A stretch of DNA of 32,000 nucleotides. Source: a virus. The first letter of the stretch is position 1. Each line of letters opens with the position of its first letter. The translations under genes were made by a program, and so were the position numbers. The stretch spans positions 1-32,000 of the IMG/VR virus record IMGVR_UViG_3300045988_065417, one strand, 5' to 3'. Shown here one piece after another: positions 19,615 through 27,323 of the stretch. The notes under the pieces were generated by a model. The model saw nothing but the letters and a program-made list of their open reading frames with translations. It made no database searches and was not told the origin of the DNA.

Positions 19615-20844
19615 TTAAGTACTCCTTCCTGTGATCAGGTCCATATATGTCGACCAACTATAAAAGTGGGCGTCGAATGTATCGACGTCGGTTGTAAAGT
19701 CATCCAGAATCTTATCTTCCTTCGATTTTGTATCGTATAAAGCTGTGCTCAAACTTTCGACCACCATAGGTACTGCCTGGAACTTCATCTTGTGTCGGTT
19801 CAGCAACATGTTGTAGGTCAGAATACGTGTCTTTCCGTCTATCTTGCGGCAATCCATCACATTGGTTGGAAAGCCTGCCCTTTGTACGGCTACTCGTATA
19901 CTGTTCAAAATGACTTGTTCTGCGTTATCTACAAAAACACTTGATACCACAAATCCTTGAATCCATAAAGCTCTGATCAGGTCGACTGTCTCTGTGCAAA
20001 GTCTTTCGGCATCTATAGTTCCTTTAGCGTGTACTACTTTACGTTCTGCAAAGGTTACAATCTCAGAAAGGTCTGCAGTGATCCCCGTTACGATCAGGCT
20101 ACTATGTGAACGTGTTCCACCTATGTCCAGGCCTATGTTGATCATGTTAAAAAGTGGAAGTTCTCCTTTGACTTCCCACTCGTCTGGATTGTCTGCAAAC
20201 TGTGGAAAGAGTAGCCCTTCCGCGTTGCACCATTCTCCCAGTATGTATCTGTTGTATAGGACTGTCCCTCGATATTCGAGTTTCAAGTTTTCCACGAATT
20301 CCTGCGGCAGAAACGGGTTGTCCTCAATCGTATATTTCTGGCGGAAGATGTCGGCTCCTGATTCTAGAAACTTTAGAAACCAATGGTTCTTGTTGTCCGG
20401 GTTGCATGTTCCGTCAAAGCAGCTATACGGTTTATCTAGACGCGATTTTAGCATGTCAAATACTTTCTTATTCCAGGTTACGACTTCATCCCCGTAGCAG
20501 TACGCTACTGAGGCCCCTTGTATCTTTGTTACCTGGCTTTCTTTGTCTGCGCCTATTGCGTAGCAGTTACGGCCGAATAGTCGCACAGTGTTGTCTGGTC
20601 TTACTCTTCCAACTAGTTCAGGGCCATACAATTCTCGCATGGGTTCTAGAACGTTTCTTTCAAGTGTTGACTTTGTGTTTCCTATGAGGAACACGTGGCC
20701 TGGAAGGCCCTCTATAGCTCGAATACGTTTCGGGATGATGTAATAGTCCAGCCACGTCTTTCCGCTACGTGTAGCCCCTTCTTTTATGTTCCAGCGGCTT
20801 GGTTTATGATTCCAGAACTCTTTCTGTTTCTCAGTCAGTTCCAC
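19615..20844 (-). CDS. terL: Terminase large subunit (PBSX-family type)
   Basis: 409 aa. Walker A GATRSGKT near the N-terminus. Overlaps the TerS stop. Confidence 0.9.
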   Translation of the reverse strand: MELTEKQKEFWNHKPSRWNIKEGATRSGKTWLDYYIIPKRIRAIEGLPGHVFLIGNTKSTLERNVLEPMRELYGPELVGRVRPDNTVRLFGRNCYAIGADKESQVTKIQGASVAYCYGDEVVTWNKKVFDMLKSRLDKPYSCFDGTCNPDNKNHWFLKFLESGADIFRQKYTIEDNPFLPQEFVENLKLEYRGTVLYNRYILGEWCNAEGLLFPQFADNPDEWEVKGELPLFNMINIGLDIGGTRSHSSLIVTGITADLSEIVTFAERKVVHAKGTIDAERLCTETVDLIRALWIQGFVVSSVFVDNAEQVILNSIRVAVQRAGFPTNVMDCRKIDGKTRILTYNMLLNRHKMKFQAVPMVVESLSTALYDTKSKEDKILDDFTTDVDTFDAHFYSWSTYMDLITGRST

Positions 20845-21334
20845 TGTTGTCTCCGGCTACTGTGTCCATAGCTTTCAGTAAAAGATCCAGTTTCGTAATC
20901 TCTTTAGAAGGGTCTCCTTGTCTCTTGATCTGTTCAGCTTGTGCGTTCATCAGCTTCGTTCGGGCTCTGTCTAGACTTGTGACTGGTTGCTGTCCTGTAA
21001 GGTCTCGAATGAATTCTGCAGCCCTTACGTCTCCGCGTGTGGCTTTGTTGAACATGGTTGCGGCTAAAAGCATTTGATTGCTGAGCTCATCATCTTCTAA
21101 TCCCATGTCGATCAGCTTCTCTTTATTTCTTTCGCTTGGCTCCAACTCTAGGATTGCCGCCAGGCATTGTTTCAACTTCTTTTTCTTTTTCTGGACTTTC
21201 TGGCTTGCGGCTCCGCCTTTGCGTCCCATCTCTGCTGCATTCTCTTTCGTGAAAGGCTTCAGGTTTTGCATAGGGTCTTTGCGCTGTCTGGCCGCTTCGC
21301 TTTTTGTACGTCCGGCTAATCCCTTAGCAGGCAT
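20831..21334 (-). CDS. terS: Terminase small subunit (putative)
   Basis: 167 aa basic protein (NLKPFTKENAAEMGRKGGAAS...ATRGDVRAAEFIRDLTG) overlapping the TerL start by 14 nt. Confidence 0.6.
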   Translation of the reverse strand: MPAKGLAGRTKSEAARQRKDPMQNLKPFTKENAAEMGRKGGAASQKVQKKKKKLKQCLAAILELEPSERNKEKLIDMGLEDDELSNQMLLAATMFNKATRGDVRAAEFIRDLTGQQPVTSLDRARTKLMNAQAEQIKRQGDPSKEITKLDLLLKAMDTVAGDNSGTD

Positions 21335-21579
21335 CTGATATCAGCTCCGCCTGTTCTCCGGTGTAATCTTCCCAGCGCTTGATAACTACATCGGCAAAGT
21401 GTGGATCATACTCCATCATGAAGCACCTCCGTCCTAGCTGTTCGCAAGCCATAAGCGTGGAGTCTGAACCTCCGAATAGGTCCAGCACGTTTCCTCCATT
21501 TCGGCTGCTGTTCTTGATCTGTCTTGCAATCAGTGGAATTGGTTTCATGGTTGGATGTTCTTATGTCTTTAATGTTCAT
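21324..21579 (-). pseudogene. Remnant of a beta-class N6A/N4C DNA methyltransferase (C-terminal third only, frame broken)
   Basis: Frame A: EHPTMKPIPLIARQIKNSS..VLDLFGGSDSTLMACEQLGRRCFMMEYD (HPTxKP plus FGGSxST motif I). No DPPY motif. A native-looking SD plus ATG at 21579 (MNIKDIR) is in another frame, and a TAA sits 4 codons before MKP. Confidence 0.65.
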
Positions 21580-21600: not shown

Positions 21601-22194
21601 TAAAAAAGAAGCGTTAGCAGCTCAGTGTTCTCTCCAATGAGAGGTCTATCCTGTTTAGCTTCTAAGGCTTCTTTGTTGTCTATGATTACCCGGAGCGCTG
21701 AAAAGAAGATAAAATTTATGTCCATGATTTGTCGTAGCTGATGTTTGACGTTGTCTGGAAAGCACTCGTTTTTTTATAAAGGAGGACGCTCCGGGTAAAA
21801 GAAAAGGGGCCCTTTTCTATCGGTCCTCTTTTACAAGTACTAATATACCACTTTAAAGTGGTACACAGTGGGAACTCTTTAGCTTTTTGTGAGCTTTTTT
21901 ACTTCCGCCATCAGATGTTTATATAGTCCTCGTCTACTGTGCCTCAAGTTTAGCTGCATGAAGGGTTGCTACTTCTTCGAGCTTGTTTCCTAGCTGATCA
22001 CGTTTATAGATTTCTCCTGATGTCATCTGTAGCAGCTGACCGCATAGCACTCCAGCGTTGGCTGCTAGCAATGATTCGTTGTTATCTAGTTCCAGAACCT
22101 TCTCACGTTTGAAAGCGTGGTATTCTGTCATCGCTTTTTGAGGTAGCTCGATTGATTTTTTTAAGTACTGAACCGGTTGAAGTTTGTCAACAGT
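21601..22194 (-). pseudogene. Remnant of a phage SNF2-family helicase (inter-lobe segment readable, remainder decayed)
   Basis: Open frame 22194-21934: ...IELPQKAMTEYHAFKREKVLELDNNESLLAANAGVLCGQLLQMTSGEIY...LHAAKLEA matches the linker pattern of phage SNF2 helicases (aanaavl..kLlQ...GavY...h..Kl.aL). It has no N-terminal ATPase lobe. Downstream only broken frames remain. Confidence 0.5.
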
Positions 22195-22325
22195 CTAGAT
22201 GCAAGTGTTCTTGCCGAATGGTCATTCTTAATGTTAGGATATGCAACTTTGTATGCTCTTGTTGCATTCAAATCAATCAAATACTCGTCAACAAATAATT
22301 TCTGCTTTTCTGTCAATTTAGCCAT
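22161..22325 (-). pseudogene. N-terminal fragment (54 aa) of a Terminase_2-type small terminase, with an intact SD
   Basis: Not in the ORF track. MAKLTEKQKLFVDEYLIDLNATRAYKVAYPNIKNDHSARTLASRLLTN then FNRFST-stop. Matches the LTxKQxxFxxEYxxxxNAtxAxxxAGYSxKtAxxxaSRLLxN signature. SD AAAGGAGGA upstream. Confidence 0.65.
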
Positions 22326-22365
22326 AGAATTCCTCCTTTCATTATTTTGAAATTAAATATCTGTC

Positions 22366-22707
22366 TTAATGCCCTTTCCATCCTTTTCTTGGTGAGCCAG
22401 CTCCTCTTACCCACAATTGATCTACTTCTTTTGCTATTTGTCTTTTTCGACGACGTTGTTCTGAATCTTTATTAGCTAAATCTCGGCTTGTAAGCTTTTG
22501 TACTTTATAACCCATAGATTTTGCCCTAGAAGCTATATCGGATAAGGTCCTAGGAATTTCCCTACTTCCACTATCAGCAAATGATGCACCGGAAAAAGAA
22601 AATACTTTCTTTCCTTTTTGCCTATACTCAAATACAGTTCCATCTCCTGTGGTAACAGTTAAACCAACTGTCCCCCCCCGATTTACATATTGGCCTCTTC
22701 CACCCAT
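22366..22707 (-). CDS. Small basic protein starting MGGRG (113 aa), unknown function
   Basis: SD AAGGAGGA 9 nt upstream of the ATG. Gly-rich N-terminus and a basic C-terminal tail (RRRKRQIAKEVDQLW). Confidence 0.6.
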   Translation of the reverse strand: MGGRGQYVNRGGTVGLTVTTGDGTVFEYRQKGKKVFSFSGASFADSGSREIPRTLSDIASRAKSMGYKVQKLTSRDLANKDSEQRRRKRQIAKEVDQLWVRGAGSPRKGWKGH

Positions 22708-22732
22708 ATAATATTTCCTCCTTATTCATGTA

Positions 22733-22764
22733 TAAAAAAAGCACCTTGAATTAACAAGATGCTT
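22733..22764 (-). terminator. Intrinsic terminator immediately upstream of the 113-aa gene SD
   Basis: Minus strand AAGCATCTTG-ttaatt-CAAGGTGCTT (10 bp with one G-U) followed by TTTTTTTAT. Confidence 0.7.
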
Positions 22765-22893
22765 AGATAGCGTTTAAAATTTAAACTGATATTTTTTAAT
22801 AAATCGAAAAGGCGCTCCGATTCGAACGGAGGTTTCCTCAGTGCATATCGTTTTGTGATATGCATGCATCAAAGTGTAATCACCCCTATACGA

Positions 22894-23292
22894 CTACCTT
22901 TTCTTATTTTTATTTAACCATAACCGTTTTACACGGTCAACCATTTTCCTTTCCTCTGCAGTCAAGTTTGTGGCACCTTTTTTCCCGTCACGTTCAGAAT
23001 GATAATAACCATGATGAGTATGTGGCTTCATATTTTGATGATCATGTGTTAAATCAATCTGTTTTGTACGTTTATTTGAATTGTCATAATAAGAAATTGA
23101 TGAAATTTCATCTTTATCATTTACTGTGGCATATACTCGCCCTCTGGTCATCGTTTCCATCGGAGCTTTTGCATTACTAGCATTGGCTTGCTTCACAAAT
23201 TTAATATTTCCACTCTGATAAACTGTATTGTATTCGCTCCCATAAGGCTTTCCACTGTCACTGACACCGCTGCTTGCTCCTCTACCGCCCAT
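22894..23292 (-). CDS. Small His-rich protein starting MGGRGASSG (132 aa), unknown function
   Basis: The start overlaps the DUF4417 stop by 11 nt. Motifs NIKFVKQ, RVYATVN, DLTHDHQNMKPHTHHGYYHSE. Basic tail EERKMVDRVKRLW. Confidence 0.65.
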   Translation of the reverse strand: MGGRGASSGVSDSGKPYGSEYNTVYQSGNIKFVKQANASNAKAPMETMTRGRVYATVNDKDEISSISYYDNSNKRTKQIDLTHDHQNMKPHTHHGYYHSERDGKKGATNLTAEERKMVDRVKRLWLNKNKKR

Positions 23293-23920
23293 GTTTTCTT
23301 GCCCTCTCTATAACTTTATTTTTATAATAAATAACTTTTGTTCCTTTGAAATCATGTTCAATAGATTGGCCATAAATTAGAATTGCAGTAGGTTTAAGCT
23401 TATCAATCATGTAATCTACACCATCTTTCCAAATGGATCTAGCATATTCATCCTTAATACATCCAATAGTTGAGATTGCCACAATACCCCCTGGTTCAAT
23501 GCCATCAAAACAGAATGTGTATGTTTCTCTTTCGGCCCAGGAAACTGTTGGAATCACACATATTCCTTGACTCTGAAGGTATTGCCCAATTAATCTACTT
23601 CTATAGATATTCCATACTTTCATAGCTCTAGGCATATCCATATAAAGAGAAAAGTCTGGTGTAAGAACACAGTCATACTGTTTTAAGACATTCACATATC
23701 GTTCGGGAGTGTTCCAAATGCGCTCAAACTGATAATCATCAATAAACATATGAATTCCAGATTGATAATTCTTTGAAGAAATTGCTTCATTGAATCCAAT
23801 TAACTCATTAGGAATATGAAGTGTCTTTTTAATTACTGGCATTTCAAATGGACCGTCTGCTTCATATGGATCATATAAATCTAGATTGTATTTTTTGATT
23901 GTTAGTTCTCTTCCTGGCAT
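23282..23920 (-). CDS. DUF4417-family protein
   Basis: I prefer the ATG at 23920 (SD GGAGGTG). MFIDDYQFERIWNTPERYVNVLKQYDCVLTPDFSLYMDMPRAMKVWNIYRSRLIGQYLQSQGICVIPTVSW matches the DUF4417 signature as I recall it. Confidence 0.75.
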   Translation of the reverse strand: MPGRELTIKKYNLDLYDPYEADGPFEMPVIKKTLHIPNELIGFNEAISSKNYQSGIHMFIDDYQFERIWNTPERYVNVLKQYDCVLTPDFSLYMDMPRAMKVWNIYRSRLIGQYLQSQGICVIPTVSWAERETYTFCFDGIEPGGIVAISTIGCIKDEYARSIWKDGVDYMIDKLKPTAILIYGQSIEHDFKGTKVIYYKNKVIERARKHGR

Positions 23921-23941
23921 AGAACACCTCCTTTCTTGCAT

Positions 23942-23966
23942 AAAAAAAGCCAAGACCTCTGTCTTG
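23942..23966 (-). terminator. Hairpin plus T7 immediately upstream of the DUF4417 SD
   Basis: Minus strand CAAGAC-agag-GTCTTG followed by GCTTTTTTTAT. Confidence 0.5.
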
Positions 23967-24087
23967 ACATAATTTCTTATGGTATTAGTTTACCACTTAT
24001 TCAAGTACACAGTGTGCACCAATATAATAAAAGCCCATTTACCGGCTATATATATGGACTTATTCTTTATATATAATATTATTCTAA

Positions 24088-24222
24088 TTAGATTGTATAG
24101 TTAATCTTGTTTGATTTCGGATCAACATAAAATCTAAAAGCTTTCTTACCGTAATCTTTTGCGTAATACGTTACGCCATCACGTGTAAAGTGAGTACAAA
24201 AAATAACTTTTTGTTGCTTCAT
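24088..24222 (-). CDS. Small ORF (44 aa, MKQQKVIFCTHFTRDGVTYYAKDYGKKAFRFYVDPKSNKINYTI)
   Basis: Not in the ORF track. Strong SD AAGGAGGA 8 nt upstream of the ATG at 24222. Basic and aromatic-rich. Confidence 0.45.
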   Translation of the reverse strand: MKQQKVIFCTHFTRDGVTYYAKDYGKKAFRFYVDPKSNKINYTI

Positions 24223-24329
24223 ATTACATTCCTCCTTTCACAATCTTGAAAGGAGCGTCGCAAAATGATACAATTCAATTGATCTATTGAAGAGTTTAGC
24301 CGCATTTTGTGTGCTCATCTCAAGATTTT

Positions 24330-24359
24330 AGAATCAAGTTGCAGCTTGATTCTTTTTTT
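24330..24359 (+). terminator. Plus-strand-oriented intrinsic terminator (the only clear plus-strand signal in the window)
   Basis: AGAATCAAG-ttgcag-CTTGATTCT (9-bp perfect stem) followed by TTTTTT on the plus strand. On the minus strand it is followed by AAAATC. Confidence 0.55.
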
Positions 24360-24398
24360 ATATTCAATGTTCAAAAAAAGCTGAACATTCAATATAGT

Positions 24399-24923
24399 CT
24401 ATTTTTTAAAATTTTCAACTTGTATCTTTGCACATTGCCAAGATACTTTACAATTTTTCACGATATCATTTGCACTCATATTTTTTACTAAATCCATAGG
24501 AACTAAAAGCTCAGCTGCAAATGTATTTGCTTGCCATTCCGGGTTTATATAGAACGGAATTTCTTCGTTTGCTCTTGCAAAACGAATGTGATTCGCCGTA
24601 TGGAAAAGGTAATGAAACAATTCATGCGCTAACGTGAATCTAGATCTCCCGTCTCCATTAATTGCTTTTTCGTAAACGTCTGACCGCACTACCATCTCAT
24701 GAGTATCAGGATATGTTATAGCGTAATGTCCAGGTGTGATTTCATCTGGCTCAACAATACTCAGAGAAAATTCTTCATCAATTGTTGGCAACACAACATC
24801 AAGAAACTTAACTATCAGAAAACAATATCCCTTAATATTGAAAATTTTTCTAAGTCTTTTAGCAATTAATCGAATCTCATTTCTTGACAAACCATCCGCC
24901 TGGCACATTGTACTCATAAGCAA
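24399..24923 (-). CDS. ImmA/IrrE-family (COG2856) zinc metallopeptidase
   Basis: 174 aa. HEXXH motif in TLAHELFHYLFH, and a downstream EWQANTFAAELLVP motif. Its start abuts the XRE stop. Confidence 0.85.
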   Translation of the reverse strand: MLMSTMCQADGLSRNEIRLIAKRLRKIFNIKGYCFLIVKFLDVVLPTIDEEFSLSIVEPDEITPGHYAITYPDTHEMVVRSDVYEKAINGDGRSRFTLAHELFHYLFHTANHIRFARANEEIPFYINPEWQANTFAAELLVPMDLVKNMSANDIVKNCKVSWQCAKIQVENFKK

Positions 24924-25277
24924 CTAATCCTCCTTTAATACTTTTTCAATAGCTTTGATTTGATTCTCTGTTAATGAATCAAACTTTCGAGCAAAAGCAT
25001 TGGCTAAGCCAGCTAAATCAGCATCTTTCCCAATCAGATTTATATTCACGTTCTGTTTAGATAAATCCGCTGCTTTTTCCAGATTTTCTATCTCATTCTG
25101 TGAAAGACTGTATAAAGAAGTTAATGAACTAATAAAAGATTTTGGAATTGCTTTTTTTCCATGCTCAATCGCAGATAAATACGATGATTTCACACCTAAA
25201 CTATCCGCCATTGTTTTTAATAGTTCTCCTCGATCTAAACGAATTTTTCTGACTTCCTTCCCAAACGCTGTAAGCAT
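24924..25277 (-). CDS. XRE-family helix-turn-helix transcriptional regulator
   Basis: 117 aa. FGKEVRKIRLDRGELLKTMADSLGVKSSYLSAIEHGKKAIP is a canonical HTH_3 sequence. SD GGAGGA. Confidence 0.85.
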   Translation of the reverse strand: MLTAFGKEVRKIRLDRGELLKTMADSLGVKSSYLSAIEHGKKAIPKSFISSLTSLYSLSQNEIENLEKAADLSKQNVNINLIGKDADLAGLANAFARKFDSLTENQIKAIEKVLKED

Positions 25278-25313
25278 AAAGCAGTCCTCCTATCATTTCT
25301 CCAATGTCCATAG

Positions 25314-25343
25314 ATATTATCTCATAAAAAATTAATATGTCAA
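25314..25343 (-). promoter_or_regulatory. Sigma-A-type promoter of the XRE-ImmA cassette
   Basis: Minus strand TTGACA (25343-25338), 18-nt spacer, TAATAT (25319-25314), about 35 nt upstream of the XRE ATG. Confidence 0.6.
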
Positions 25344-25384
25344 CTTTTTAAAGTTATTATTTTAACTTTATATGGGTTAACTTT
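25340..25384. promoter_or_regulatory. Operator-like repeats: palindrome AACTTTTTAAAGTT overlapping the -35, plus direct repeats T(T/C)AACTTT
   Basis: AACTTT-TT-AAAGTT at 25342-25355. TCAACTTT at 25340-47, TTAACTTT at 25362-69 and 25377-84. Confidence 0.45.
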
Positions 25385-25385
25385 T

Positions 25386-25823
25386 TTACACTAAACTGTG
25401 TATCTCATTTCTTATATGTTTCCATAACCCTTTTCTAGAATATCCATATTTATCGGCTACATCATATGTATTCATATTCCAGAAGTACAGATCAAATAAT
25501 ATATTCTGGTCTTGCAAAGATAAAAGCTCGATTGCTCTGCATTCATTTAAACGTCTTCGATAATAATTTATTTCTTCCACTTTTAAAGTTTCTTCTTCCA
25601 TCATCCCTAAAGGACTTGTATAAGAACCATGAAAGGTCGGCATAGGAGCATTGGATTTCTCCTGCTCCTTTGTCAACCTAATTGGATTATGGCTTAGTCC
25701 TAACATTTTATGATTAAGAACCTCAAGTTCTTCGTTCAATTCAATAATTCGATGGCAGCAATAGTTTGCCGACTTCAAATCATTCAACATTTGATTTACT
25801 TTTAATTTGTTCATTTTGTCCAC
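25386..25823 (-). CDS. Putative late-gene transcriptional activator (sigma-70 region-4-like HTH; RinA/ArpU/DUF1492-like architecture)
   Basis: 145 aa. N-terminal coiled coil. C-terminus LSLQDQNILFDLYFWNMNTYDVADKYGYSRKGLWKHIRNEIHSL resembles region 4. It is the last gene of the early block. Confidence 0.5.
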   Translation of the reverse strand: MDKMNKLKVNQMLNDLKSANYCCHRIIELNEELEVLNHKMLGLSHNPIRLTKEQEKSNAPMPTFHGSYTSPLGMMEEETLKVEEINYYRRRLNECRAIELLSLQDQNILFDLYFWNMNTYDVADKYGYSRKGLWKHIRNEIHSLV

Positions 25824-26027
25824 CTACTTCTTCTTTGCGACAACTGACCCTCTATGCCAAGACTCTTCCCCACTACGATATCTTCTTTCGTTTGCTCTTT
25901 CCTGGTGTTTCTTATATTCTTTTAATCCTAGATTCTCACGTTCCAATCTAACAATGTAATCAATAGTGCTTTGCAAACATTCTCTTATATCTTCATCATG
26001 AATATCATTTACGTTTGCATTCATCAT
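25824..26027 (-). CDS. Hypothetical early protein (67 aa)
   Basis: ORF abutting its downstream neighbour and overlapping its upstream one. Charged, coiled-coil-like. Confidence 0.5.
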   Translation of the reverse strand: MMNANVNDIHDEDIRECLQSTIDYIVRLERENLGLKEYKKHQERANERRYRSGEESWHRGSVVAKKK

Positions 26028-26254
26028 TCATTCTCCGTAACAAATTCAATTTGTTCTCTATCAACACAAAACCTAGCACCATCATTAAATTCGATGTCGT
26101 ACAAATATCTAGTTGTGCCAACAAGCACACATATGTTTTGCTTGTGCGTAACATTACCAACTTGACCGATGTAATCTTCTTTGTGCTTACCAGTACTACT
26201 AATCAATTCTTCTTCGTACTTATCATCTAAATATAATAATCTAGCTTTCTGCAT
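26024..26254 (-). CDS. Hypothetical early protein (76 aa)
   Basis: ORF whose ATG overlaps the upstream stop (TAATG). Confidence 0.5.
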   Translation of the reverse strand: MQKARLLYLDDKYEEELISSTGKHKEDYIGQVGNVTHKQNICVLVGTTRYLYDIEFNDGARFCVDREQIEFVTENE

Positions 26255-26433
26255 TATTTGATTACCTCATAATTATCTAAGATTTCATGAATTGGAATAC
26301 TTGTACCAATGTCTTTAAAATATCCTTTTTTATACAATTCGAGCAAAGTACCGTAATTTGAAATACACTGCCGCATTCCACTATTTTTATATGCATTCAA
26401 TAAATCGTATTCGCATTGTGTTAATTTGTATGT
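26254..26433 (-). other. 59-codon open frame continuing in-frame beyond the TAA of the upstream gene (no ATG or SD at its 5' end)
   Basis: ...ASPYRN-TAA-TYKLTQCEYDLLNAYKNSGMRQCISNYGTLLELYKKGYFKDIGTSIPIHEILDNYEVIK-TAA. Protein-like composition. Confidence 0.4.
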
Positions 26434-26763
26434 TTAATTTCTGTATGGACTTGCCAACCATCTAAGTCTTTTCTTATTACAATTATCATTACCGCTAAAG
26501 CCGCATTTACTACAACTTGTATCTAAGCACTTCGTAAGTCTTCCATTAACTCGAGCAAAACCGCCTAGACCTACTGTTGACAAATATTCAAAATGATGAT
26601 CAAGATTCGTTTCTACTTTTGCTTCAAAATGCTCATTAATTAATGATGATAAAAAATCTAAGTTTACCGCAATTTGTTCCAACGCCCATTCGTCACAAAT
26701 TGAAGAATAAAACGCTTCTCTAATCTTTTTTATAGCATCTTCATAGTCTTTTTTTGTCACCAT
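26434..26763 (-). CDS. Hypothetical early protein, Cys-rich C-terminus (109 aa)
   Basis: ORF with CLDTSCSKCGFSGNDNC. Sits in the tightly packed early operon. Confidence 0.55.
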   Translation of the reverse strand: MVTKKDYEDAIKKIREAFYSSICDEWALEQIAVNLDFLSSLINEHFEAKVETNLDHHFEYLSTVGLGGFARVNGRLTKCLDTSCSKCGFSGNDNCNKKRLRWLASPYRN

Positions 26764-26991
26764 TTAAATCCACCCCAGTTCTTCTTTTTGTTTTTGAATG
26801 GCTTTCTTTACATTTTCATCAGGGATTTTTATTGCCATTCCACACGAGCAGTGACAAGTTTTTTTCTTTAAATCAAATGTGACAATTTCAATCGTCTGCC
26901 CTGTTAAATGACTAACTTTTTTGTAATAAATAGAGTGTTTAAAGTGTCTCCAGTTGTAACCTAACTCTAAAAACATGTCTTCTGCTGTCAC
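26764..26991 (-). CDS. Hypothetical early protein (75 aa)
   Basis: ORF abutting or overlapping its neighbours. Confidence 0.5.
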   Translation of the reverse strand: MTAEDMFLELGYNWRHFKHSIYYKKVSHLTGQTIEIVTFDLKKKTCHCSCGMAIKIPDENVKKAIQKQKEELGWI

Positions 26992-27323
26992 TCTTCATCT
27001 CTCCAATCTAATGCTTGTCCACAACTTGGACAATATTTAAAATCATTTCCACTCATATGTTCTAAATTGCAATTTGGACACCACCAATCATACCTAGGAA
27101 TGTTTGTTCCATCTCTATAATTATCTTTTCTAATTAACTCTTTTATTTCTGGTTTTTTTGGAGTTGCTCTTTCAACCAATTCTTGTGATGTTTCGCATGA
27201 GCTATAATAAAAGTTTTGTAAATACTTTGCAGTGCGATATCCATCACCACTTTTATCTAGCACTATGTTTTTAATCTCATCTAACGCTTCTTTATATTTA
27301 TTCATAGCCTTGTAACACCTCAA
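26988..27323 (-). CDS. Hypothetical zinc-ribbon protein (111 aa)
   Basis: CPNC...17 aa...CPSC pair near the C-terminus. Confidence 0.55.
   Translation of the reverse strand: MRCYKAMNKYKEALDEIKNIVLDKSGDGYRTAKYLQNFYYSSCETSQELVERATPKKPEIKELIRKDNYRDGTNIPRYDWWCPNCNLEHMSGNDFKYCPSCGQALDWRDEE

Follow-up and report, generated by a model that had tools for sequence, protein, structure and literature searches.

An XRE–M78 cassette of phages includes a conserved small-protein gene and a predicted antisense RNA

Introduction

Pairs of genes encoding an XRE-family helix-turn-helix (HTH) repressor and a zinc peptidase of the M78 (ImmA/IrrE-type) family are among the commonest unexplained gene pairs of phages and mobile elements, and usually receive no attention beyond annotation. 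Here we describe such a pair, followed by a conserved small-protein gene and a predicted antisense RNA gene, in a 32,000-nucleotide stretch of viral DNA (IMG/VR record IMGVR_UViG_3300045988_065417, positions 1 to 32,000; hereafter the window). The closest described systems share parts of its logic. In CapH/CapP, a switch set off by DNA damage that controls a neighbouring immune operon, and in Deinococcus DdrO/IrrE, a palindrome-binding HTH repressor is removed by its M78 partner. CapP and IrrE are proteins of ~290-300 residues whose C-terminal GAF domain forms a groove for single-stranded DNA (ssDNA) together with the peptidase domain (PMC13228613); CapH is cleaved at F82|R83 in its C-terminal domain, and capH/capP is divergent from its CBASS cargo. 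RosmerTA systems (RmrT/RmrA; e.g. of Gordonia phage Kita, and pneumococcal RipAB) combine an ImmA/M78 peptidase and an XRE HTH, usually fused at the N-terminus of RmrA, with a small variable effector. Phage and prophage genomes carry them in the company of toxin-antitoxin and defence cargo. ImmA-domain antitoxins with varied toxins are validated phage-borne defence systems (PMC10440598). In ImmR/ImmA (ICEBs1, phage phi105), the HTH repressor gene is followed by the peptidase gene in one operon, which controls integrase, excision or lytic genes within a lysogeny module. At the level of RNA, the SOS-controlled type I toxin-antitoxin loci tisB/istR-1, symE/symR and dinQ/agrB encode stress-derepressed small proteins whose messages have structured leaders, with a threshold set by a constitutive antisense or divergent small RNA (sRNA) that restrains translation.

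The cassette described here is a module of the Rosmer/CapHP/ImmRA type whose regulator is split and whose putative effector family is new, with a predicted antisense RNA as an additional layer; by analogy its proteins would resemble Rosmer and CapHP, and its RNA the tisB/istR locus. Its M78 protein matches RmrA profiles, but HTH and peptidase are encoded by two genes, the partner belongs to a new all-beta, basic family of 34-60 residues that matches no PADLOC toxin model, and the stretch separating peptidase and partner genes contains a predicted antisense sRNA and a switchable leader. No RNA component is described for Rosmer systems in PMC10440598 or in a paper on RipAB. CapH/CapP and DdrO/IrrE provide the best profile and structure matches, and a conserved motif of the XRE C-terminal domain is located where CapH is cut. 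In contrast to CapP and IrrE, the peptidase is 172 residues long, and unlike the divergent CBASS cargo, the cargo is co-directional, consists of a single tiny gene and is predicted to be controlled by RNA as well. The cassette shares the gene order of ImmR/ImmA, yet it appears as swappable cargo instead of part of a lysogeny module. Promoter derepression, a structured leader and an sRNA threshold, as in the tisB/istR-1-type loci, are all predicted for the cassette. In those loci the repressor is LexA, whereas here it is an XRE protein with a dedicated peptidase; moreover, the small protein is not hydrophobic, and the predicted sRNA covers a part of the leader 5' to the ribosome-binding site, with refolding of the leader as its presumed mode of action. 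Literature searches returned these related systems, but no description of this small-protein family or RNA element.

Results

On the minus strand the unit comprises a promoter with operators, the XRE gene, the M78 gene, a leader, the gene of a 44-residue protein and a terminator, with the predicted antisense sRNA gene lying on the plus strand between the M78 gene and the small ORF (Table 1). The same order was found in ~90 loci from Clostridia phages, Alphaproteobacteria and Escherichia coli phage LLS, and the XRE–M78 pair is kept in all loci examined. Every feature named in a preliminary description, made from the sequence of the window alone, is present where that description placed it; what it overlooked is that the 44-residue open reading frame (ORF) and the intergenic RNA element form the conserved core of the unit. 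In the contexts of homologues (M78 at 40-70% identity), XRE proteins of 116-132 residues and M78 proteins of 168-182 residues are followed, 96-266 nucleotides downstream, by an ORF of 34-60 residues. A hidden Markov model of the small proteins detects this ORF in 83 of 91 loci, as 51 distinct sequences; the ORF first noticed for its strong Shine-Dalgarno sequence (GGAGG) is thus a real gene. Six of the eight loci without a match end within ~40 nucleotides of the M78 match. In locus L071 the small ORF is present and had been overlooked by the script, and in L003 it is lost. The near-identical loci L003 (10523-11034) and L004 (1515-1915) diverge exactly at the small-ORF Shine-Dalgarno sequence: L003 retains XRE, M78 and the sRNA region, the small gene is gone, and the next gene, on the opposite strand, encodes an integrase. 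Such a pattern of decay would be expected were the small gene the harmful one. Reverse look-ups from two small-protein homologues likewise found XRE and M78 genes adjoining wherever upstream sequence is present.

The small proteins share the core motif h-x-[FY]-[IT]-x-x-x-G-x-x-[IY]-[YW]-A-x-x-[YH]-G-x-x-A-[FW]-x-[FI]-x-V. A HMMER search over 1.84 billion representatives yielded 276 clusters (50% identity), in which all credible matches are stand-alone small proteins with no informative fusion; one long match was dismissed, being made of 13 short repeat matches. No family for the protein was found in Pfam, PHROGs, PADLOC or NCBIfam, tblastn against phages gave no match, and comparison with sequence profiles of the PDB gave chance matches only. 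An AlphaFold2 model of moderate confidence (pLDDT 72) is small and all-beta with no predicted helix, for which Foldseek returned nothing at E ≤ 0.001. The basic, aromatic-rich composition suggests nucleic-acid binding.

Conservation of the region between the M78 gene and the small ORF strongly supports a predicted antisense sRNA gene, bounded by its own promoter and terminator. An opposite-strand TGnTAnAAT -10 box forms the most invariant columns of the intergenic alignments, preceded across the family by a TTG-type -35 at a spacing of 17 nucleotides. A crude scan covering 57 distinct intergenic regions scored a TG-extended site as the top opposite-strand promoter in 46 of them and recovered a terminator in 47, giving predicted sRNAs with a median length of ~75 nucleotides. 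At the terminator hairpin (P1), the A-run of the cassette strand is kept although the stem varies in sequence: compensatory changes occur at all seven modelled pairs, and there are 11 G-U pairs on the antisense strand against 3 on the cassette strand. The conserved -10 box, the TG-extended promoters, the covarying P1 and its antisense-strand G-U pairs together place the predicted sRNA of the window, which folds at -20.5 kcal/mol (z -2.4). At the level of sequence alone, the locus thus resembles type I toxin-antitoxin systems in having a putative antisense RNA gene that overlaps the small-protein mRNA. The preliminary description had recognised the plus-strand terminator and taken it as a hint of an antisense transcript over the 44-residue ORF. 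The terminator and the transcript agree with these data, its extent does not: because transcription would start at ~24281, the leader is covered and the small ORF itself is not.

A further hairpin, P0 (TATTGAATGTTCA / TGAACATTGAATA), directly follows the M78 stop codon and is proposed from folds and from the alignment read by eye. It occurs in several clades with other sequences, e.g. TGTAATGGAGAAATCCTTTACA, and has no T-run on either strand. P0 could shield the 3' end of the XRE–M78 message or be a back-up stop for antisense transcription. A search of Rfam over 22000-27000 (E up to 1) gave nothing in the intergenic region of the cassette, and weak, chance-level matches elsewhere.

Along the cassette strand, the intergenic region comprises P0, the A-run and GC-rich P1, a left arm, a loop region of pattern ACAAnnnnAnTnTAnCA, a right arm holding TTGCAAG or TTTCAAG, and a short hairpin that ends in the Shine-Dalgarno sequence. 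The leader is predicted to adopt two folds. Fold A is a long hairpin (P2-P3-P4) in which the left half pairs with the right half, with the outer stem AATCTTGA (24320-24327) : TCAAGATT (24242-24249), at -24.0 kcal/mol (z -4.0) by direct folding of the window. In fold B the right half instead pairs with the Shine-Dalgarno sequence and buries it, through the core CUCCUUUCA (24247-24255) : UGAAAGGAG (24232-24240); its energy is -21.7 kcal/mol (z -4.8), and the extended stem pairs the first two bases of the AUG. Both folds are unusually stable; they share 24242-24255 and are therefore mutually exclusive. There is perfect complementarity between the predicted sRNA and the leader's left half.

Covariation among relatives supports the long hairpin. 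In a MAFFT alignment that was not fitted to any structure, 81.9% of cells are paired versus 37-46% with slid partners, and doubly changed cells number 86 versus 20-38 in the slid controls. A covariance model was built from 19 sequences. When 36 sequences are aligned to it, compensatory changes are seen at 33 of the 36 pairs of the leader and terminator helices, with a covariation score of 0.42 versus ≤0.11; since this alignment is biased towards the model, the independent support is that from MAFFT. In most loci searched, the model locates the element where expected and on the correct strand, in the interval from M78 to the small ORF (window element 24220-24361, minus strand, E ~5e-4), and off-target matches are few, all with E > 0.1. 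Divergent members, the window included, align less well on the left arm, for which reason the structure of the window was checked by the direct folding given above. The pairing that sequesters the Shine-Dalgarno sequence is kept in relatives (77% of cells paired versus 39-64% when slid), and the G-U pairs of this hairpin favour the mRNA strand by 46 to 18. When the part complementary to the sRNA is masked, the predicted accessibility of the Shine-Dalgarno sequence falls from a mean of 0.33 to 0.16 across the family, by more than 0.2 in 22 of the 57 regions, and rises in none. A conserved forward promoter for the small ORF inside the leader was considered and rejected: the '-10-like' box, inspected by eye, has no fixed TG or -35 register across loci and is read instead as the complement of the antisense -10 within hairpin P4.

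Upstream of the XRE gene, the near-consensus promoter TTGACA-18-TAATAT reported in the preliminary description is present (10 of 12 matches), and an alternative reading, TTGACA-16-GATAAT with an upstream TG, matches at 11 of 12 positions. This is the top-scoring promoter-like site in 23200-26200, and a TTGACA-type promoter likewise precedes XRE in relatives. With this promoter and a terminator of its own, the cassette is autonomous, as had been proposed. The palindrome over the -35, AACTTTTTAAAGTT (25342-25355; AACTTT-NN-AAAGTT), is real and has its sole match in the window here, yet on its own it lies within chance, since 24 of 100 shuffles gave at least one match. AAAGTT/AACTTT hexamers start at 25342, 25350, 25364 and 25379, four within 45 nucleotides; none of 300 first-order Markov simulations placed four within 50 nucleotides. 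The repeat octamer occurs across the window at chance level. Relatives carry different palindromes at the same place (TTAACC-N6-GGTTAA or ATCAACAAAA..TTGTTGAT), in three sequence classes that all overlap or adjoin the -35 or -10. This pattern fits autorepression by co-evolving repressors, and is compatible with the autoregulation suggested at the outset. No AAAGTT/AACTTT hexamer is present in 24222-24398 around the sRNA promoter, as read from the sequence, and no consistent operator half-site was seen there in relatives.

The XRE protein gives HTH_31, HTH_19 and HTH_3 matches under Pfam cut-offs. Its best PADLOC match is capH (3e-8, covering residues 2-115), its match to RmrA profiles is weak (0.006), and in the structure database it matches the XRE-family regulator chains 9sf2, 6jq1 and 7t5u. 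A C-terminal motif, aFARK[fl][dn], is conserved among the XRE proteins of cassette loci; by analogy with CapH, cut in the same region, it is a candidate cleavage site only. The XRE stop codon (TAG) abuts a TTG start for the peptidase at 24923, as originally noted. Gene callers and 207 database members instead start M78 at the ATG equivalent to 24917, six nucleotides after the TTG, which is the more likely start. The peptidase belongs to PF06114 (Peptidase_M78; 8.6e-11), and H98, E99 and H102 of its HExxH motif are invariant across 25 homologues. Its best PADLOC match is capP (3e-15), followed by RmrA (8e-10 for the best of 14 profiles). Among solved structures it is closest to CapP (7t5t, 6e-13, over the peptidase domain only) and IrrE (3dte, 5e-5). 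The match spans positions 35-124 of the 242 of the capP profile, and residues 82-179 of the 291-residue chain 7t5t; the C-terminal GAF domain of CapP and IrrE is absent.

Proteobacterial loci were found in Sphingomonas, Rickettsiales, metagenome-assembled genomes of Alphaproteobacteria and phage LLS, whose host is E. coli K-12. In LLS, genes 28 (XRE) and 27 (M78) precede an unannotated 46-residue family member, and an opposite-strand promoter (TTGACA-16-TATACT) and terminator are present with unrelated sequence. No DNA near-identical to the LLS cassette was found in complete E. coli genomes, nor to the window cassette in GenBank phages. A terminator-like site lies 3' of the small ORF in 48 of 67 distinct relatives.

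The position of the cassette was compared with that in sibling phages, which share the early genes of the window at 87-95% identity. One sibling (L094) carries an identical cassette behind the same regulator-like gene. Cassette-free siblings with >90% identical regulator and flanking genes carry other cargo: in L098 (7593-8462) the PADLOC defence candidate PDC-S42 (3.4e-20), and in L092 (13255-14367) and L099 (14309-15227) a SocA/Panacea antitoxin gene followed by a partner gene without an assigned function. These phages thus have a hotspot for cargo between their regulator and packaging genes. An unrelated lineage (ERF/Sipho_Gp157 type; L006-L009, L106-L109) holds a 47%-identical version at the same relative position; in other phages the cassette follows the lysis genes at the prophage end, and in L003 and LLS it lies near the integrase gene or attP. 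The position had been called atypical in the preliminary description, a view that these comparisons overturn, while its suggestion of a toxin-antitoxin or abortive-infection-like module agrees with the neighbourhood.

The window as a whole is a segment of a temperate-type siphophage genome with essentially all long ORFs on the minus strand, in the order single-stranded DNA-binding protein, methyltransferase, small early genes, a phrog_36 regulator-like gene, the cassette, DUF4417, and packaging, head, tail, holin and endolysin genes. Two genes between DUF4417 and a terminase remnant encode proteins that both start MGGRG (22894-23292, minus strand, 132 residues, phrog_9479; 22366-22707, minus strand, 113 residues, no family), and they accompany DUF4417 in L098. 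The gap between them holds a weak Rfam match to SpF41, a Streptococcus sRNA (22778-22906, minus strand; 32.7 bits versus a gathering threshold of 52, E 0.024), that is probably due to chance. A 54-residue ORF (22161-22325, minus strand) matches only the first 50 residues (78% identity) of the siblings' small terminase of 165-176 residues, and a 74-residue ORF (21324-21548, minus strand) matches only the C-terminal part of DNA methyltransferase families. These gene remnants at the start of the packaging region look like a mosaic junction left by module exchange. The large terminase of the window (19615-20844) is unrelated to that of L092. In L092 (14951-17123) a 202-residue ORF splits the large terminase into 171 and 251 residues, and a similar split (169 and 251 residues) is found in L001; that of the window is not split.

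Table 1. Features of the cassette and its surroundings in the window, with the family member of phage LLS
Feature	Positions	Strand	Description
phrog_36 regulator-like gene	25386-25823	-	directly before the cassette
Operator-like repeats	25340-25384	-	inverted repeat over the -35 and two more AAAGTT(A/G)A copies
Cassette promoter	25314-25343	-	-35 TTGACA 25338-25343; -10 GATAAT 25316-25321 with upstream TG, or TAATAT 25314-25319
XRE-family repressor, 117 residues	24924-25277	-	N-terminal HTH and C-terminal domain with motif aFARK[fl][dn]
M78 (ImmA/IrrE-type) zinc peptidase, 172 residues	24399-24917	-	HExxH at 98-102, no GAF domain; ORF also opens at TTG 24923
Hairpin P0	24361-24394		directly after the M78 stop codon
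Antisense sRNA terminator (P1)	24330-24360	+	9-10 bp stem (24330-24353) and T7
Predicted antisense sRNA, ~80 nucleotides	~24281-24361	+	complementary to left half of small-ORF leader; bounded by promoter and terminator
Antisense sRNA promoter	24246-24274	+	TTGAAA-17-TGaTACAAT, extended -10
Leader fold A (predicted)	24242-24327	-	long hairpin P2-P3-P4
Leader fold B (predicted)	24216-24272	-	buries the Shine-Dalgarno sequence
Conserved small protein, 44 residues	24088-24222	-	basic, aromatic-rich, predicted all-beta; core FTRxGVTYYAKDYGKKAFRF
Cassette-closing intrinsic terminator	23942-23968	-	just upstream of the DUF4417 gene; 23968-23949 in a narrower delimitation
46-residue family member of phage LLS	L190 3619-3759 = PQ299149.1 complement 24032..24172	complement	downstream of genes 28 and 27

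Discussion

We favour, with moderate confidence, the reading that the cassette is a self-contained mobile accessory unit (a moron): an effector module triggered by stress or infection, derepressed by its protease and fitted with an RNA threshold. The sRNA, the read-through that it would meet and the direction of regulation are what we infer from the sequence. At rest, XRE dimers on the palindromes would hold the operon low, and sRNA made from its own TG-extended promoter would pair with the leader of the few read-through transcripts. Pairing with the left arm would release the right half to close the ribosome-binding site, the duplex would probably be marked for cleavage, and an sRNA-bound leader would give no small protein. 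A signal, for which DNA damage or ssDNA (as for ImmA, CapP and IrrE) or an infecting phage are candidates, would activate the peptidase, and XRE would be cut in its C-terminal domain, perhaps at the conserved FARK motif. Transcription would then rise and outrun the sRNA, fold A would form co-transcriptionally with the ribosome-binding site open, and the small protein would accumulate. It would be the effector, most likely a growth inhibitor resembling the Rosmer toxins and acting in abortive infection, superinfection exclusion or addiction. A harmful effector is the most likely role because of the phage-borne Rosmer precedent, the toxin-antitoxin and defence cargo in the sibling slots, the loss of the small gene in L003 and the RNA layer that would silence it.

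Several observations weigh against this reading. The small protein is not hydrophobic, unlike most type I toxins, and is without a relative in Pfam, PHROGs, PADLOC, NCBIfam or the PDB. The M78 peptidase is without the GAF domain that is the means of ssDNA sensing in CapP and IrrE. Among the RNA structures, covariation in the hairpin between the Shine-Dalgarno sequence and its complement is weak, as expected where the Shine-Dalgarno sequence is constrained, and the G-U asymmetry of the long hairpin is modest, at 70 versus 50. Finally, in the clade of the window the ribosome-binding site is buried at equilibrium whether or not the sRNA is present, so the open state would need to be the co-transcriptional one.

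The same features lend themselves to a different view of the small protein, as a regulatory partner instead of a toxin: an activator or sensor for the peptidase, an anti-repressor, or a counter to host defence, with the sRNA setting a bistable threshold and the targets of the module lying elsewhere. The peptidase, which lacks the ssDNA-sensing GAF domain of CapP and IrrE, stands beside the small gene in every locus with upstream sequence, and the protein is basic and aromatic-rich instead of membrane-like. Yet the XRE palindrome is single in the 32-kb window, so that no other targets are visible there; it is typically harmful products whose leaky expression is silenced by RNA; the cargo of the sibling slots is toxin-antitoxin or defence; and L003 lost the small gene alone. 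We consider this alternative fairly unlikely. In our estimate it is also rather unlikely that the cassette is a hitherto unrecognised, widespread module of three layers (repressor, protease and antisense RNA) in which the all-beta protein of 34-60 residues is a new kind of effector that acts jointly with the GAF-less peptidase, e.g. by sensing nucleic acid in trans, all four components forming a bistable sensor of damage or infection instead of a plain toxin-antitoxin pair.

The preliminary description had likened the pair to ImmR/ImmA, and both proteins do fall in the ImmR and ImmA families, with a peptidase of ImmA size. The cassette also comes just after a regulator-like gene, and near the integrase or attP in L003 and LLS. 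An immunity module that contributes, from an unusual position, to the lysis-lysogeny or late-gene decision of its own phage is nevertheless quite improbable. In L094, the sibling with the identical cassette, a divergent HTH repressor/Cro-type junction lies apart from the cassette, 11 kb upstream; L091, where no cassette was detected, encodes an integrase together with an S24 CI-type repressor and a Rha/ANT antirepressor. Siblings whose regulator and flanks are more than 90% identical do without the cassette, elsewhere it follows lysis genes, and the window holds no further operator copy. Two observations that the preliminary description had named in advance as counting against its view, a separate switch and related phages lacking the cassette, were thus largely made among the siblings. 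Given these separate switches, the other cargo in the slot and the recurrence elsewhere, the cassette is very probably not what switches the phage between lysis and lysogeny, and its location is not unusual for such a unit.

The intergenic element could also be a structured 5' leader or a protein-binding DNA palindrome without an antisense-RNA function, its promoter and terminator being look-alike by-products. Any hairpin arm that is the complement of a -10 box will inevitably look like one itself, and the modest G-U asymmetry of the long hairpin fits this too. Against it, the TG-extended -10 with a TTG-type -35 at 17 nucleotides is the most invariant feature of the region; the A-run kept before a changing stem makes sense only as a terminator of the other strand, the strand favoured by the G-U pairs of P1; and E. 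coli phage LLS has the same parts in unrelated sequence. We therefore hold the absence of an antisense RNA to be similarly improbable. A pairing of XRE and COG2856 as a type II toxin-antitoxin system, here with the peptidase as toxin, XRE as antitoxin and the small ORF incidental, was reportedly predicted from comparative genomics. It is highly improbable for this cassette, since COG2856 was not toxic when over-produced in Streptococcus pneumoniae or E. coli (PMC4257102), ImmA-domain proteins are the antitoxins of Rosmer systems, and no parts of the unit are linked more tightly than the small ORF and its predicted RNA control.

Overall, the XRE–M78 pair of this subfamily is the control end of a larger unit, to which two conserved and so far unannotated parts belong: a small-protein family of 276 clusters and a covarying antisense-RNA/leader element absent from Rfam. 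On the favoured reading of a protease-derepressed effector module, the unit would join the proteolytic removal of a repressor to an antisense-RNA threshold, two modes of control that are normally studied apart. Moreover, the slot upstream of the packaging genes is marked as a hotspot for defence and toxin-antitoxin cargo in these phages. The architecture is also present in LLS, a cultured phage of E. coli K-12, and every step of the proposed mechanism is therefore open to routine genetics.

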